The notes under the pieces were generated by a model. The model had not been told where the DNA came from. It did no database searches and saw only the letters and a program-made list of their open reading frames with translations. 64,000 bases of DNA from Eledone cirrhosa (Eukaryota). Numbering within the stretch: position 1 is the stretch's first letter; every line of letters starts with the position of its first letter. Below are positions 10,944-63,406 of the stretch, piece by piece. The translations under genes and the position numbers were made by a program. The DNA lies in the NCBI GenBank assembly GCA_964016885.1, contig OZ024743.1, positions 223,138,001 through 223,202,000 of the forward strand. The letters run 5' to 3'.

Positions 10944-10962
10944 TATATATATATATATATAT

Positions 10963-13900
10963 TGTGTTAGGAAGGGTATCCAACCAGTGTATCAATGCCA
11001 AAACGCTTATCAGCACAGCAACAAATAAGAACAACAACAAAATATGAAGACGTCGCATCTCAGAGTTGCAACACTTAATGTTGGCACTCTCAGAGGTAGA
11101 TCTGCTGAAATAGCGGAGATGCTGGAGAGAAGGCAGGTGGATGTGTGCTGTGTGCAAGAGGTGAGATGGAGAGGTGCCTCTGCGAGACTAGTCGTAGGCA
11201 AGCGTCTTGGCTATAAGCTATTCTGGGTAGGTAAGGATGATGGGCTAGGGGGAGTAGGCATTTTCCTGGCTGAGAAATGGATCAATAAGACAATAGAGGT
11301 AGTTCGAGTTAGTAATCGAATAATTAAGCTTAGATTAGTTGTAGGTAGGGGACTACTGACAATCATCTCGGCCTATGCTCCCCAAGCAGGCCTAGGCAAA
11401 GATGAGAAAGACTGCTTTTATGAGCAACTTTTGCAAACAACCGCAATGACAGAGGACGGAGACATTGTTATGCTAGCAGGAGATTTCAATGGTCATGTTG
11501 GACAGCTCCAGGATGGTTACACTGGGGTACATGGTGGGCACGGTTACGGTTCAAGAAATCAAGAAGGAGTGAGACTTCTTGAATTTTGTGATGCGGGTAC
11601 ATTGACTATTTGCAACACAAACTTCCAGAAACTTGCCAATCACCTAATAACCTACATATCTGGTGAGCACATAAGCCAGATTGACTTCCTACTAGTTAGG
11701 CAGCGGGACAGGCAGATAGTGTCTAATACCAAGGCATACCCTGGGGAAGAATGTACCCCACAGCATAGGTTAGTTGTTAGTGATATCAGAGTAAGCAAGA
11801 GATGGAATGAGACATATAGGAAGGTGTGGAGAAGAAAGGTCTGGAAGCTAAAAGACCTTTCACTAAAATACAAATTTAGGAAAGCCCTTCAAGATGTATA
11901 TGACGAAAAAGAAGACGATTTAGAGACGTATGACATAGATAATAACTGGAATTTCTTACGTGACAACTTGTTGCAGGCTACTGATGAAACCTGTGGCTGG
12001 AGCAGAGCTCCAACCAGACAGAGAATGACCTGGTGGTGGAACAGCACAGTAGATAAGGCTATTAGAGACAAAAGACTAGCATGGAAGGCTTGGAAAAAGG
12101 GTGGGAGTAGGGAAGAATATACAGCCACTAAGAGAGAAGCTAGACGTCAGGTGTACTTAGCACGCAGGGAGGCAGAGAGTAGGAGGTTTGCCAATGTTCT
12201 GCGACAGGAAGATCAGAGGCGTGCGGTGTTCCACATTGCAAGGCAGTGTGTCAATGCAAATCAGGATGTTGTTGGAGATAAATGTGTCCGGGATGATGCC
12301 GGTGTACTTAGTGTCACGAATGATCAGAAAAAGGAGGCCTGGAAATGTCATTATGAGAGACTGATGAATGTGGAGAACGAATGGGAGAGAGAAATTACCC
12401 TTGGTAGATCCAACAGAGGGACCAGCTATTGAGATTGACGAATATAGGGTCCAAGAGGCGATTAGGGAAATGAAAAATGGTAAGGCTGCCGGACCATCGG
12501 GAATAGTTGCTGAGATGCTGAAGGCATCAGGGGACGTAGGCACTAAACTGGTTGCACGCATCATCAATCGGGCTATATATGGTGGTGTCATACCCAAAGA
12601 CTGGTGCAGCAGTATTCTCATAAATTGCTACAAAGGTAAAGGGGATGCTTTGGAGAGGAGCAATTATAGGGGTATAAAACTGATAGATCAGGTTATGAAA
12701 GTGGCAGAAAGGATTTTAGCACAACTAATTAGAGAAAGGGTCAAACTAGATGAGATGCAGTTTGGTTTTGTGTCTGGGAAGAGTACAACAGATGCCCTCT
12801 TCTTGGTGAGACAATTGCAAGAGAGGTTCTTAGAGAAGAATAAGCCACTATACTTAGCCTTTGTTGACCTAGAGAAGGCCTTTGATAGGGTACCCCGATC
12901 TGTCATCTGGTGGTCCCTAAGGAAGCTAGGTGTTGAGGAATGGCTTGTGAGGACAGTGCAAACTTTGTACAGAGATACTCTCAGTAAAGTCAGGGTAGGA
13001 ATGGAGTTTAGTGAGGAATTCCAGATACAAGTAGGAGTACATCAGGGTTCGGTCCTCAGCCCGCTCTTGTTCATTATAGTCCTCCAAGCCATAACAGAGG
13101 AGTTTAAGACTGGCTGTCCATGGGAACTTCTCTATGCTGACGATCTGGTTCTTATAGCAGAATCAGTAGAGGAGCTAGGGAATAAATTCTGGCTATGGAA
13201 ACAGCAGTTGGAAGCAAGAGAACTGAGAGTGAATCTAGCTAAGACAAAAGTGTTGATGAGTAGAAAAGAGGACAAAACCCTGATTTCGTCAGGGAAATGG
13301 CCATGTTCGATATGCAGAAAAGGAACTGGCATAAATTCTATAAAATGCACACAATGCAGATCCTGGGTACACAAGAGATGTAGCGGGATAGCAGGCAAAC
13401 TAACAGGTAGGGAGAAATATGTATGCAGTAGATGTACAGGGAAATTAGACAGTAGAAGTCGCACTGATAGACAGATTTTTCAAATACAAGAGGGCGCTAT
13501 AGAAGTGGTGGATAGCTTCCGGTACCTAGGAGATCAGATTAGCATGGGAGGAGGGTGTTCCGAGGCCATGGTATCTAGAATAAGGACGGGTTGGAAGAAG
13601 TTTAGGGAGCTGCTTCCTCTGTTGACGAAGAAGGGTTTCTCCCTGCGTACGAAAGGCCGGTTGTATGATGCCTGTGTGAGGAGCGCGATGCTGCATGGTA
13701 GTGAGACATGGGCAGCAACTGCAGAGGATATACGACGGCTGGAGAGAAATGAGGCAAGCATGCTCCGTTGGATGTGCAGTGTAAATGTGCGTGAACGACC
13801 CAGCATAAATGTGTTGAGAGAGAAACTGTGTCTGAGAGGGATAGAATGTAGTGTACGGGAGAGGAGACTGAAGTGGTATGGACATGTGATGCGCATGGAG

Positions 13901-14124
13901 GATGACCGATGGGTGAAGAAGTGCCAGGAATTGCCAGTTGAAGGAAGACGTGGTAGAGGTAGACCACGAAAAACATGGGCGGAGGTGGTGAGAACAGACC
14001 TCAGATCATTGAAGCTCACGGTGGCGATGACGAGGGACCGTGACGAGGGACCGTGACGAGTGGAGAGATGCTGTGCTGAATAAGACCCATCCCACCCTTG
14101 CAAGCAGGGAAAAGCGGACGTAAA

Positions 14125-14156
<32 letters not shown>
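10963..14156 (+). mobile_element. near full-length RTE-clade LINE (APE endonuclease, RT, PHD-like finger)
   Basis: APE motifs (ATLNVGTL, CVQEVRW, GDFNGH, QIDFLL); RT motifs (QFGF, FVDLEKAFD, GVHQGSVLSP, LYADD); C-terminal RGRGRPRKTW; (TGA)n tail; flanked by (TA)n. Frameshift near 12390 and a 13-bp duplication at 14028-14053. Confidence 0.95.
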
Positions 14157-14395
14157 ATATATATATATATATATTAATTTGTGTTTGAGACACGTTGGCT
14201 GAGAGCTTTTGACGGCAACGAAAAGATTTGTTTTCTATTCTCCCGCCACCACGCACAGTTTGTATATCGGTGGCTGATCGAGAGACAGAGTTGTATCAGA
14301 TTCCAGTTGCTAATCACTTTACTGTGTCGGCTGTCACAAACAGTCATAGCCGGTATGGGCTGGAGTTTGGATCTGTCGATTGATTGGTTATTGGT

Positions 14396-14520
14396 TAGTC
14401 GATACCTGCTGATGAAGCCACATATGCCGATTATGCATTGTTGCATAATATATGCAGACAGAGGGTGCAGTGCACCCTACTGCTGCATTAAGTGTGGCTG
14501 AAACTCGAGTCCGGGAACTA
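14396..14520 (+). ncRNA. type I hammerhead ribozyme with extended, branched stem II (family C)
   Basis: Stem I ccug/cggg plus distal uagu/acua; CUGAUGA 14409-14415; stem II agccaca/uguggcu enclosing two hairpins; GAAA at 14500; stem III ACUCGAGU; GUC site, cut after 14511. Confidence 0.85.
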
Positions 14521-14708
14521 TTATAGGCACCCGTTTTACGTGTGTTGTGTTGAGGCAAATAACTATGTGTATACTCTGGCAATGTATCCTACATTACACA
14601 TTTAGTACACTGCGATACAACTGGTCCTGGCATTGATGAATATGCTGGGTCCGTCAACTCCTTATTATATATAAGAAATATATATATATATAAATGAAAG
14701 GTATATAT

Positions 14709-38132: not shown

Positions 38133-41100
38133 GTGGATTGGCAGTATCGGTAGTGTCAGACGCCAAGAGTTACGGCCCTTTATGGTCTGAGTTAAAATCC
38201 CCTCGAGGTTAACTTTGCCTTTCATCCTTACAGGGTCAATAAAATAAAGTACCAGTCACACACTGGGGTCGATATAATCGACTCCCCCCCCCCCGAAAAA
38301 AATTGCTGGCCTTGTGCCTATATAAGAAACAATTATTATAGGGCGGTGTATTGGCAGAATCGGTAGAGCGTCGGACAATATGCTTTGCGACATTGAGTTA
38401 CGTCCCTTCACACTCTGAGTTCAAATCAGTGGTGTCAATTTAATTGACTTTGCTGGCCTTGTGCCTAAATGAGAAACCATTATTATTATTTCTTAGGGTG
38501 GTAAATTGGTAGAACTATTAGTGTGTTGGATTGTTTTCTTGTATATTATACTGGCTGTTTATGATATGAATAAAATCCCGTTGGCCAACTTTTCCTTTCA
38601 TCTTCCTAAGGTTGATATAAAAAGAAGTACCAGTCAAATATTGGGATAGTATAATCAACTAATTCCTTTCGCCAAATTTCTGGCCTTGTGCCTAAATCAG
38701 AAAGTGGCAATGGGTGGTGGATTGGCAATATCGGTAGATGGTCGGACGCCAAGCTTTGCAGCATAGAGTTACGGCCCTTTACGGTCTGAGTTCTAATCCC
38801 ACTGAGGTTAACTTTGCCTTTCATACTTAAAGGGCCAATAAAATAAAGTACCAGTAATGTACTGGATTAATTGCTGGCCTTGTGCCAAAAAGTAGAAACA
38901 ATTATTATTAAACCTTGTGGGTTTATGTGGAACACCTGCTGTCATGTGTAGGACTGATTCAGCTATCAGCTGAGTCCATTGTGAAGATTGCTCTGCTACC
39001 TTCCTTTAGCCAGGAAGGGCAGGCAGTTTTTGTCTGCCTGGTGGCTATGGCGAAAGAGGTCATGTGGTGGACATCTAAAAGGGCTGAAGACAAGCACTTT
39101 CTTCTTCAACGAAGCTCTGATTAACGTTTTCAGGTTTCACTTGAAGAGGAAAATCAAGGTGGAGAGGGTAGAGTTGCCTTCCAAGCAGTTTGTTGAAGGA
39201 TGAATGAGAGAGGCGAGCATGGCCCGAATGAATGGGCCTGCTCTGAGTATGCACCTGGAGATTAGAGGTGGAAGACTGGGAAAGAGCACTTGCCCTGGTG
39301 GTCAGGGTGATCATGGCTTTTTGTGGGCTTTCTCCATGTGTGACCCTCAGAAGTCCCCCCACCCCCCCACCCCTATTGGGGAATTTATTTTGTTTGAATT
39401 TGTTTCACATGCTTTCCTTGTTTTTGTTATGACTTTTTACACACCAAAACCTGTGCTGTCCTGTACCCTTCTTAATGTTTTCTTTATGTGAGCCCTGCAT
39501 GGCTAATAAAGAAATCATTATTATTATCATGTCCTCCCTCAGGGTTGATCTTAATTCTTGGTTTAGTCAAGATAGTGGACAGCATTCAGTGGTCTTAGGT
39601 ATCATGACGCTGTTTCTTTCTTTTCTGTTTGCATCTAATTATTATCATCATTTTTACCTTTCATCCTTATGAGGTTGATAAAATAATGCACCAGTAATGC
39701 ACTGGGGTAATTGCCAGCCTTGTACCAAAAGTAGAAACATTATTAATATTAGTAAAGTACCAGTAATGCACTGGGGTATTTGCCAGCCTTGTACCAAAAG
39801 TAGAAACATTATTAATATTAGTAAAGTACCAGTACCAAAAGTAGAAACAATTATTAATATTATTATTATTAGGGTGGCAGATTGGGTGTATCAGTAGAGT
39901 GTCAGACTACAAGCTTAGCAACACAGAGTTACGTCCCTTTACGTTATGAGTTCAAATCCCACCGAGGTTGACTTTGCCTTTCATTCTTATGGGGTCAATA
40001 AAATAAAGTACCAGTCATGCACTGAGGGCGATTTAATCGACTTTCCTCTCCCCCAAAATTGATGGCCTTGTGCCTATTGCATTACTAATAAAGTACCAGT
40101 AATGCACTGGGTAATTGCTGGCCTTGTGCCAAAAAGTAGAAACAATTATTATTCAGCGAAAATAATAGGGCGGTGGATTGGCAGTATCGGTAGAGGGTCG
40201 GACGCCATGCTTTGACGCATAGAGTTACGGCTCTTGCCATTCTGATTTCAAATCCCGCCGAGGTTGACTTTGCCTTTCATCCTTACAGGGTCGATAAAAT
40301 AAAGTACCAGTAACGTACTGGATAATTACTGGCCTTGTGCCAAAAGGTAGAAACAATTATTATTCAGCAGAAATTATAGAATGTCTGACAAAATGTTTTG
40401 CGGTAATGAGTTACGTCCCTTTACTTTCTGAGTTTAAAATCTTGCCAAGGTTAATTTTGCCTTTCATCCTTCTGAGGTTGATAAAATAAAGTACCAGTAA
40501 CACACTTGGGGGGGGGGGGGAGCAATTTAATCGACTTTCCCCTTCCTTCCCCTTCCCCCCATACCATAAAAAAAAATTTTTGGCTTTGTGCCTAAATTTG
40601 AAACTCTTATTGTTTTGAGTTATGTTAATCAGAGGGATAGGAGGGATATAGCAGAAAAAATAGAGGAGTATTTTATTAAATATCTTGCATTGTTTAATTA
40701 CATGTTTTTATCTTCTGAGTTCAAATCCCACCAGGGTCGGTCAGCTTTATATCCTTCAGGAGGGATCAATTCTATAAATAAATACCAGTCAACTAAATAG
40801 TACTGAATCCACCCCACACTAAGCTCTTGGCCAATAATATGGGGAAGAGATTGATTATATCAACCCCAGTATTTAACTGGTACAATATTTTATCAATCCA
40901 AGAAGGTTTGAAAGACAAAGTTGATGTCAGAGGGATTTGAGGTCAAAAATATGAAAAGGCCATAAAATAAATATGGCAAAATATTTTGTCCAAATTCTAC
41001 CAATTCTTCATATCTCACCTAGGTCAAATTTGCCTTTCCTCCTTCCTGAGTTGATAAAATGAAAAGTACCAGCGAAGTACTGAGGTTAATATAATTGACC

Positions 41101-42310
41101 CCACCCCCCACTACACACACACACAATTGCTGACCTTGTGCCATTTCTAGAAAAAGTTATTATTTTTTATTTATTTCTTCTTATTATTATTTATTTATTT
41201 CGGACGTAACTATGCTTTCCAGCATAGTTACGTCCCTTTACGATCTGAGTTCAAATCCCGCCGAGGTTGACTTTGCCTTTCATCCTTACGGGGTCGATAA
41301 AATAAAGTACCAGTAATGTACTGGGTAAGCGCTGGCCTTGTGCCTAAAGTAGAAACAATTATTATTTATTTATTTATTATTGTTATTGTTGCTATTATTA
41401 TTAGTGTTATTATTAAAGGGTGGTAGCATAGAGTTACGGCCCTTTATGATCTAAATTCAAATCCTGCCGAGGTTAATTTTGCTTTTCATCTTTACAAGGT
41501 CGATAAAATAAACTACCAGTCACGCACTGGGGGCGATTTAATTGACTTTCTCCTCCCCCCAAAAGTGTTAGCCTTGTGCCTAAACACCAAGGGCGGTGGA
41601 TTGGCAGTATTGGTAGAGTGTCAGACACCATGCTTTGCAGTATAGAGTTACAGCTCTTTACATTCTGAGTTCAAATCTCGCCAAGGTTAACTTTGCCTTT
41701 CATCTTTACGGGGTTGATAAAATAAAGTACCAGTAATGCACTGGGGTTGATTTAATTGACTTTCCCCTTCTCCAAAATTGCTGGCCTTGTGTCTAAATCA
41801 GAAACCATTATTATTATTATTTATTATTACAATATTTCAAGGGCGGTGAATTGGCAGTATCAGTAGAGGGTTGGACGCCATGCTTTCTAGTACAGTTACG
41901 TCCCTTTACAGTCTGAGTTCAAATCCCGCCGAGGTTAACTTTGCCTTTCATCCTTATGGGGTCGATAAAATAAAGTACCAGTAATGTACTGGGTAATTGC
42001 TGGCCTTGTGCCTAAAAGTAGAAACAATTATTACAATTATTTCTGTTGTTGTTGCTAAGGCAGCGGATTAACAGAAACAGTGGAATATTTGACTAAATAC
42101 CTTTCAGTATTTAGTGTTGTTTCTTAAAGTTCTGAGTTCAAATCCTGCCACAATTGACTTTTCTTTCTTCATCCCTCATAAGGATAGGTTGGGTTGGGTT
42201 GGTGAAATATAATACCAGTCATACACTGAATGTCAATGTACCTGACAATAATACATACACCTCTTCTACAGAAATTTCTGGCCTTGTGCCCTATTAAAGA
42301 AACCATTACT
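38133..42310 (+). mobile_element. dense cluster of about 15 tRNA-derived SINE copies and fragments
   Basis: Repeated heads ggcggtggattggcagtatcggtag, B-boxes, the core gcctttcatcc..ggggtcgataaaataaagtacc and (att)n tails; nearly all on the + strand. Confidence 0.88.
38915..39520 (+). mobile_element. 3' remnant of an L1/Tx1-like LINE
   Basis: Broken ORF ...CLVAMAKEVMWWT..FRFHLKRKIKVER, followed by a UTR with aataaa; clade assignment is by resemblance only. Confidence 0.45.
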
Positions 42311-63324: not shown

Positions 63325-63406
63325 GGTACTGTAGCCAAGTGGTCTAAGACGCTGGTTTTAGGCACCATTCTCTTTGGAGGCATGGGTTTGAATCCCATTG
63401 CTACCA
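63325..63406 (+). pseudogene. decayed tRNA-Leu(UAG) copy, possibly a SINE head
   Basis: 82 nt colinear with metazoan tRNA-Leu(TAG), with long variable arm and TAG anticodon; many changes are CpG-type, including T-loop TTCG>TTTG. Confidence 0.8.

Follow-up and report, generated by a model that had tools for sequence, protein, structure and literature searches.

Introduction

The hammerhead ribozymes of Penelope-like elements (PLEs) are known as small motifs. The descriptor given in the parts of Cervera and de la Pena (2014, PMC4209133) on which we draw has a helix II of 3-7 bp and a loop 2 of 3-10 nt, and in the corresponding parts of Craig et al. (2021, PMC8557442) the hammerheads of the Hydra clade are called canonical, and spacers of 7-17 nt were permitted in the core scan. 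For a PLE of the anole, the portion of PMC11167929 available to us reports that initiation is internal, that the targets are AT-rich, that the hammerhead needs protein, and that uncut RNA is the main template.

In the genome of Eledone cirrhosa analyzed here, however, thousands of PLE hammerheads, belonging to many families and also to autonomous elements, have large folded domains. Our analysis concerns one such copy in a stretch of 64,000 nt (assembly GCA_964016885.1, contig OZ024743.1, positions 223,138,001-223,202,000 of the forward strand), which we refer to as the window. We consider it probable that the repeat to which this copy belongs, about 845 bp long, is a non-autonomous PLE with a hammerhead whose helix II is capped by a likely selected 70-nt domain and which is predicted to cut only when copies pair.

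Results

An earlier reading of the window, made from the sequence only, had described a solo monomer of ~490 bp. Copy comparison shows that the element is a 5'-truncated copy (14172-14662, + strand; unit positions 354-845) of a non-coding Penelope-type repeat unit of ~845 bp. The copies of this family have a common 3' end, and many extend further 5' than the window copy; of the two ends of the supposed monomer, the 3' end alone coincides with a boundary of the family, and the 5' end is a truncation inside the unit. The window copy is 90-92% identical to the best 39 scored copies other than itself (the best 40 of 3,275 candidates in its own 3.0-Gb genome), and 77-92% identical to the 48 matches longer than 200 nt in the sampled loci. 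The TA flanks that had been noted are indeed present on both sides. The 5' (TA)n tract (14156-14174) is a target site common to the element and the tail of an RTE-type LINE, and the 3' TATTATA/(TA)n tract (14663-14692) is likewise a target site; of 90 copies, 66 have TA at the 5' junction and 70 have it at the 3' junction.

The LINE itself (10961-14156, + strand), which the sequence-only reading had correctly placed just upstream on the same strand, has an EN frame (11029-12432), an RT frame (12368-14056) and an (ATG)n tail. EN and RT do not share a reading frame, a 13-bp duplication is present at 14028-14053, and a PHD finger (Pfam E 8e-6; 13304-13435, + strand) is located directly behind the RT domain, within the frame 12368-14056. 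As the hammerhead follows the RTE tail at a distance of about 350 nt and has the same orientation, it might be a terminator ribozyme serving, or captured by, the LINE, and the earlier reading had suggested that it could cut RTE read-through RNA. We regard this as very improbable, and at the level of the family the suggestion finds no support: the RTE tail abuts none of the 90 sampled copies, three of which have a diverged RTE-like fragment on the same strand at 600-1,050 bp upstream. Moreover, TA tracts are used by both elements, and helix III is not expected to form in a lone copy. The LINE and the hammerhead repeat are best explained as separate insertions into one TA tract. Elsewhere, the window contains a 41-bp satellite (1-2552; 62 copies, 88% matches) and a tRNA-Leu(TAG)-like gene (63325-63406, + strand) with a genome-encoded CCA at its end, which is possibly a retroposed tRNA.

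A 22-mer at the 3' end of the unit has 479 exact matches in the genome (control 0). This 22-mer was present exactly in 17 of 43 independently chosen 3' ends, which leads to an estimate of ~1,200 copies for the family. Ends were surveyed in 90 of the 479 matches, taken from the top of the listing and including two near-identical duplicates and five upstream halves of tandems. The 5' ends of these 90 copies are spread from unit position 1 to 819 (median length 206 nt), and the 3' end of the family is fixed 150 nt beyond the predicted cut site. Forty-nine copies extend more than 10 nt beyond the cut site, seven end within 10 nt of it and 34 are shorter. There is no direct genomic trace of cleavage, because the 5' ends of the 90 copies do not pile up at the cut site: stop rates per 20 nt are 0.11-0.14 immediately downstream (3') and 0.02-0.07 immediately upstream (5'), a swing that is also seen elsewhere and constitutes no signal.

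The 5' part of the unit was studied in 30 loci picked by means of a 5' 20-mer (42 matches genome-wide). Twenty-six of them reach position 810 or beyond, one reaches 736 and three break off early. In 23 of the 30 loci a unit 3' end is located directly upstream, and in four there are two complete hammerheads one unit apart; L228 and L244 are examples of such a spacing. In the loci seen, tandems comprise at most about 1.5 units and never two full units. No long open reading frame was found in the three units translated, nor any coding remnants when the unit was compared with 70 PLE-type loci, and comparison with three contig sets from one sample gave no usable ends and no splice joints. The start of the unit (positions ~30-130, seen in L027:1170-1275; L numbers denote sampled loci) has an ATG followed by an exact GTAAGT donor site, with a T-rich tract and an AG acceptor behind it, possibly a retained PLE-type intron; the donor is present in two of three sister copies (see below), and no spliced form of this candidate intron was seen. 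A separate observation concerns a tRNA-like SINE of ~190 bp with ragged 5' ends, of which there are independent insertions in the ATT-rich end of the unit. Among 150 loci it gave 14 matches in 13 distinct loci (L023, L036, L046, L050, L058, L064, L065, L067, L090, L113, L127, L130 and L149), four times between tandem units. The SINE could provide a Pol III promoter, and its motif occurs a dozen times in the window (3975, 38139-41900).

The repeat thus defined has a fixed 3' end, 5' truncation, partial tandem (pLTR) and inverted arrangements, a hammerhead near the 3' end and a microsatellite target. We take it to be, in all likelihood, a non-autonomous PLE since this anatomy matches that described in the parts of PMC8557442 and PMC4209133 that we used. 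The earlier proposal of a pLTR or retrozyme monomer therefore stands as to kind (fixed 3' end, ragged 5' ends, partial tandems, TA targets and no long open reading frame) and falls as to the unit size and full arrays of retrozymes, which consist of tandem arrays of 150-450-bp units with at least two complete ones. An autonomous RT-GIY-YIG element with the 3' sequence of the unit was not found in the 90 and 30 family loci, 70 loci with other hammerheads and four young-PLE loci, and thus the link to PLEs rests on architecture. A young PLE of 1,218 codons was considered as the driver; it is TA-targeted and hence possible, but it has a short-spacer core and no sequence link to the unit. This element (L361:1958-5614, - strand; L331-L360) has an asparagine-rich insert, a minimal hammerhead core, three preferred 3' ends and 39,331 candidates in the genome, many copies being identical over 270 residues.

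The hammerhead (14405-14515, + strand) is of type I, with CUGAUGA (14409-14415), GAAA (14500-14503) and GUC (14509-14511) as the CUGANGA/GAAA/NUH boxes around three helices that are open at stem I (14405-14408/14512-14515). The cut is predicted after 14511, and 57 of 86 copies have an undamaged core. The 84-nt spacer between the first two boxes forms the helix II domain (14416-14499, + strand), composed of a 7-8-bp stem, a 6-nt linker and two hairpins: the strands 14416-14423 and 14492-14499 enclose hairpin 1 (14430-14449) and hairpin 2 (14452-14488). Folding of 14390-14535 gave z = -4.46, with none of 200 shuffles as good, and folding of the spacer alone gave z = -6.6. The predicted pair probabilities are at least 0.998 for helix II (0.999) and both hairpins, and the canonical GUC hammerhead with a helix II enclosing two hairpins, as read from the sequence, is thereby borne out. 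Helices I and II are able to form and are kept in evolution; stem I is weak in the monomer (pair probability 0.12-0.21).

Two further details of the earlier reading did not survive the comparison of copies. The A-U pair read at the foot of helix II turned out to be private to the window copy; among 86 copies, five have the usual G-C at this foot (10.1-11.1), 66 have A.C and six have A-U. Likewise, the family retains the 4 bp of stem I only, and not the extension with its internal loop. On the other hand, that reading overlooked an 8-nt palindrome (14503-14510, + strand) that would form a dimer-type helix III between two copies, with a predicted duplex of -10.7 kcal/mol. In the monomer, the pair probability of an intramolecular helix III is 0.0, and the complete hammerhead fold is 5.9 kcal/mol above the minimum. 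Palindromic helix III is present in 58 of the 65 family copies that matched the pattern. The hammerhead is predicted to cut only when two copies pair. A search of Rfam gave no hammerhead match at E 10 for the window motif, nor for any motif across 14 loci; we give no weight to this result because the short-spacer motifs in those loci also go undetected.

The linker of loop II may take part in a candidate loop I-loop II pseudoknot (14398-14428, + strand), in which 14398-14401, on the strand 5' of stem I, would form 4 bp with 14425-14428. The pairing is perfect in the family majority, is weakened in the window copy by two private changes, and is kept in a sister family (84.6% of cells); such a short pseudoknot may supply a contact between loops I and II. 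An equivalent pairing, in different sequence, is seen in five more families (p = 0.0014 over the six families where it was first noticed). A general pseudoknot rule failed in 26 held-out clusters (p = 0.31, or 0.19 with one per group; a control window gave p = 0.045). The window copy itself is likely a dead, inert fragment, because it is decayed, has these two private changes and has no partner copy nearby.

Long helix II domains are not peculiar to the ~845-bp family but occur in many families of this genome. The pattern CUGANGA-spacer-GAAAC-NNNN-GUC gave 1,297 matches with spacers of 8-38 nt (control 314), 3,844 with 39-69 nt (control 278) and 7,856 with 70-100 nt (control 192), that is, 11,700 with spacers of 39-100 nt (control 470); spacers of 101-131 nt are near background (519 versus 373). 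These are counts of copies, with some double counts, from which it does not follow that most hammerheads are of the long form: a few families dominate, and minimal cores without a 4-nt loop III, among them that of a very abundant young PLE, were left out. Among 243 motif matches in the sampled loci, long spacers of ~47-100 nt occur in at least 10 groups that by eye are unrelated and differ in plan. In 23 long-spacer representatives, 12 fold at z -2 or lower and 16 have a palindromic helix III (chance expectation 1 in 16). Hence the loop II insertion that had been called unusually large is so relative to published PLE descriptors, and it is conserved, but it is common in this genome. In addition, L328 is a tandem array whose units, repeating every 0.9-1.5 kb or so, match the core pattern with a 101- or 116-nt spacer and have no evident stems.

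Long-spacer hammerheads are also found on elements with coding capacity. At L203:1026-4822, two cores with 92-nt spacers are located within 245-bp direct repeats flanking an unbroken frame of 777 codons with RWK, DKT and YRDD motifs. The encoded protein (P0001) had no match in Pfam or PDB; its Atlas neighbours at 0.96-0.99 include members with GIY-YIG, RVT_1 or HTH_animal. We label it a PLE protein based on these neighbours and on the motifs, which the consulted parts of PMC8557442 give as the signature of the Hydra clade. L202 and L181 have the same layout, with long-spacer cores as direct terminal repeats around RT-GIY-YIG reading frames, which in these loci are broken. L201, L215 and L216 are further Hydra-type PLEs with long-spacer hammerheads in terminal repeats.

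The loose ends of the contig sets led to a sister family, 73% identical over the unit, which has 27 exact matches, tandem and inverted 5' copies, and a GUA triplet. The two families were compared by column majorities of 18 and 14 copies, and the sister sample was chosen by a motif that spans the 3' core and stem I and leaves the spacer outside. Identical columns amounted to 463/627 upstream, 113/123 (92%) in the ribozyme module, 76/84 (90%) in the spacer and 9/22 (41%) in the 22 nt after stem I. Downstream of these lies a conserved 3' region (14538-14662, + strand; 106/125 columns, 85%), which closes at the fixed family end and is the putative start region of reverse transcription. Compared with upstream, Fisher's test gave p = 4e-6 for the ribozyme module and p = 6e-4 for the spacer, values that are optimistic since gap columns are non-independent. 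The core region has 18 of 19 columns the same, the sole core change being GUC to GUA, an allowed triplet (NUH), and neither the 13 core positions nor stem I nor the palindrome differ between the two families.

These results bear on the possibility that the core and insert are conserved as a structure for protein binding or packaging by the PLE RT complex, with cleavage being slow, dispensable or absent. In its favour, the cut site is read through in 49 of the 56 copies long enough to reach it, A.C occupies 10.1-11.1 in 66 of 86, and, according to the available portion of PMC11167929, cleavage by the anole hammerhead requires protein and mutation of the core does not abolish insertion in vitro. 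We nevertheless think it unlikely: an unchanged core (13/13 positions), stem I and palindrome between families that are 73% alike, a triplet change that stays within NUH, and a palindromic helix III in far more long-spacer representatives than the chance of 1 in 16 (16/23) all argue against it.

Evidence for conservation of the helix II fold comes from three comparisons. First, within the family covariation is thin, and modest. In 86 distinct copies the helix II pair 14420-14495 is A-U in 52, G-C in 13 and G.U in 12. Pairing is kept in four of the six variants present in at least 10 copies (one pair decays to U.U in 16 copies), in eight of 17 variants present in at least five copies, and in 27 of 107 rare variants. 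Second, in a structure-keeping test of 14 copies, 94.6% of cells pair. The check for covariation among genomic copies, which the sequence-only reading had proposed, had a divided outcome in this test: nine cells are changed on both sides, a number that none of 500 shuffles attained, but the doubly changed pairs number four, which was equalled by 90 of the 500 shuffles, and of these four, two come from single sequences and one is in a register picked post hoc from the sister family. Third, another TA-targeted family, of unrelated sequence (2,859 candidates), likewise has the plan of a stem, a linker and two hairpins, with three doubly changed pairs among five copies; no PLE reading frame was attached to it in 30 loci.

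The 70-nt two-hairpin insert is likely kept by selection, because the sister family is 73% identical overall compared with 92% in the ribozyme module and 90% in the insert, with changes that keep the structure. One may argue, on the other hand, that the insert is neutral baggage: loop II would tolerate any folded insertion, and the conservation would stem from gene conversion or from a recent exchange of the 3' part between the families. The comparison spans two families only, the 3' region 14538-14662 is likewise conserved (85%), a few genomic copies lack parts of the insert, and the long spacers of other families vary in length (about 47-100 nt) and plan. However, identity drops to 41% in the 22 nt that separate the ribozyme from the 3' region, and the conservation is thus not that of a single exchanged block. 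Furthermore, the copies with deletions in the insert are single and unamplified, and a second family has the two-hairpin plan with different sequences. We judge this explanation to have a small chance of being right, somewhat smaller than that of the protein-binding structure.

Discussion

Based on the above, a non-autonomous PLE of this kind may work as follows. A PLE RT/GIY-YIG protein acting in trans would nick AT-rich DNA, and reverse transcription would begin at an internal point of the RNA, the fixed end that lies 150 nt beyond the cut site. The hammerhead would be copied through on an uncut tandem or a re-ligated circular template, one or the other being needed because copies cross the cut site once or twice. 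These steps are modelled on what the consulted part of PMC11167929 reports for the anole. In a tandem transcript, two hammerheads would come together by way of the 8-nt palindrome; with helix III formed in this manner, cleavage would occur after GUC and unit-length RNA would be freed, along the lines of the parts of PMC4209133 cited above. The insert would fold apart from the core and lock helix II; most likely it has a role as a structural module or as a docking module for the PLE protein. It is tempting to go further and speculate that in the PLEs of this lineage loop II is a slot for domains of 40-100 nt that bind the RT protein and gate cleavage, which would make these hammerheads natural protein-gated ribozymes, but we consider this doubtful. 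If true, a hammerhead with a long helix II may be present in PLEs reported to have none or to have a 'half core'.

The domain of the ~845-bp family is better conserved than the remainder of the unit, and PLE hammerheads with long domains provide natural deletion and swap tests of the role of the hammerhead and of protein assistance. In the literature searched, which was available to us in part, we found no report of PLE hammerheads with structured helix II domains of 40-100 nt; a prior mention is possible. Some general hammerhead screens permitted loops of up to 100 nt. The motif of the ~845-bp unit is predicted to work like a dimeric PLE hammerhead and yet is outside both published search patterns that we checked (a loop 2 of 3-10 nt; spacers of 7-17 nt). 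Short-loop descriptors undercount PLE ribozymes.

How the family relates to described systems can be stated as far as the sources are available to us. With the PLE pseudo-LTR hammerheads of Cervera and de la Pena (PMC4209133) it shares the type I topology, a short stem I, a palindromic helix III that implies dimer cleavage, a long helix II with an unpaired foot base, and dispersed single motifs derived from truncated elements. It thus conforms to the short palindromic helix III of their minimal descriptor but not to its loop 2, in place of which it has the 84-nt spacer with a three-helix junction; moreover, G10.1-C11.1 is mostly A.C. Like the metazoan non-LTR retrozymes (PMC7229834; bioRxiv 10.64898/2026.07.22.740005, both in part), it is non-coding, with a hammerhead in a head-to-tail unit, a G+C content below 50% and a proposed PLE origin. 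Unlike them, it has a unit of ~845 bp instead of 150-450 bp, consists mostly of 5'-truncated single copies and is known here from genomic DNA, retrozymes being expressed as linear and circular monomer RNA. The anole Poseidon PLE PAc, in the accessible part of PMC11167929, resembles it in that a fixed end downstream of the cut site and AT-rich targets fit internal RT initiation, and in that the read-through of the cut site fits the use of uncut RNA; PAc, however, is autonomous and has a small hammerhead, whereas the ~845-bp unit is probably non-autonomous. A 4-bp pseudoknot joining loop II to a strand next to stem I is predicted in this and five other families, as in the helical-contact hammerheads between stems I and II in what we have of Perreault et al. 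(2011, PMC3088659), but it is not general in held-out families and would sit inside a multibranch loop. Finally, the Hydra-clade PLEs and the non-autonomous Chlamys/MRC1 elements (Craig et al. 2021, PMC8557442, in the parts used) likewise have (TA)n targeting, partial tandems and inverted 5' copies, and other long-spacer families in this genome flank reading frames with the Hydra RWK and DKT motifs. The difference is that the Hydra-type hammerheads of this genome have spacers of 47-92 nt.
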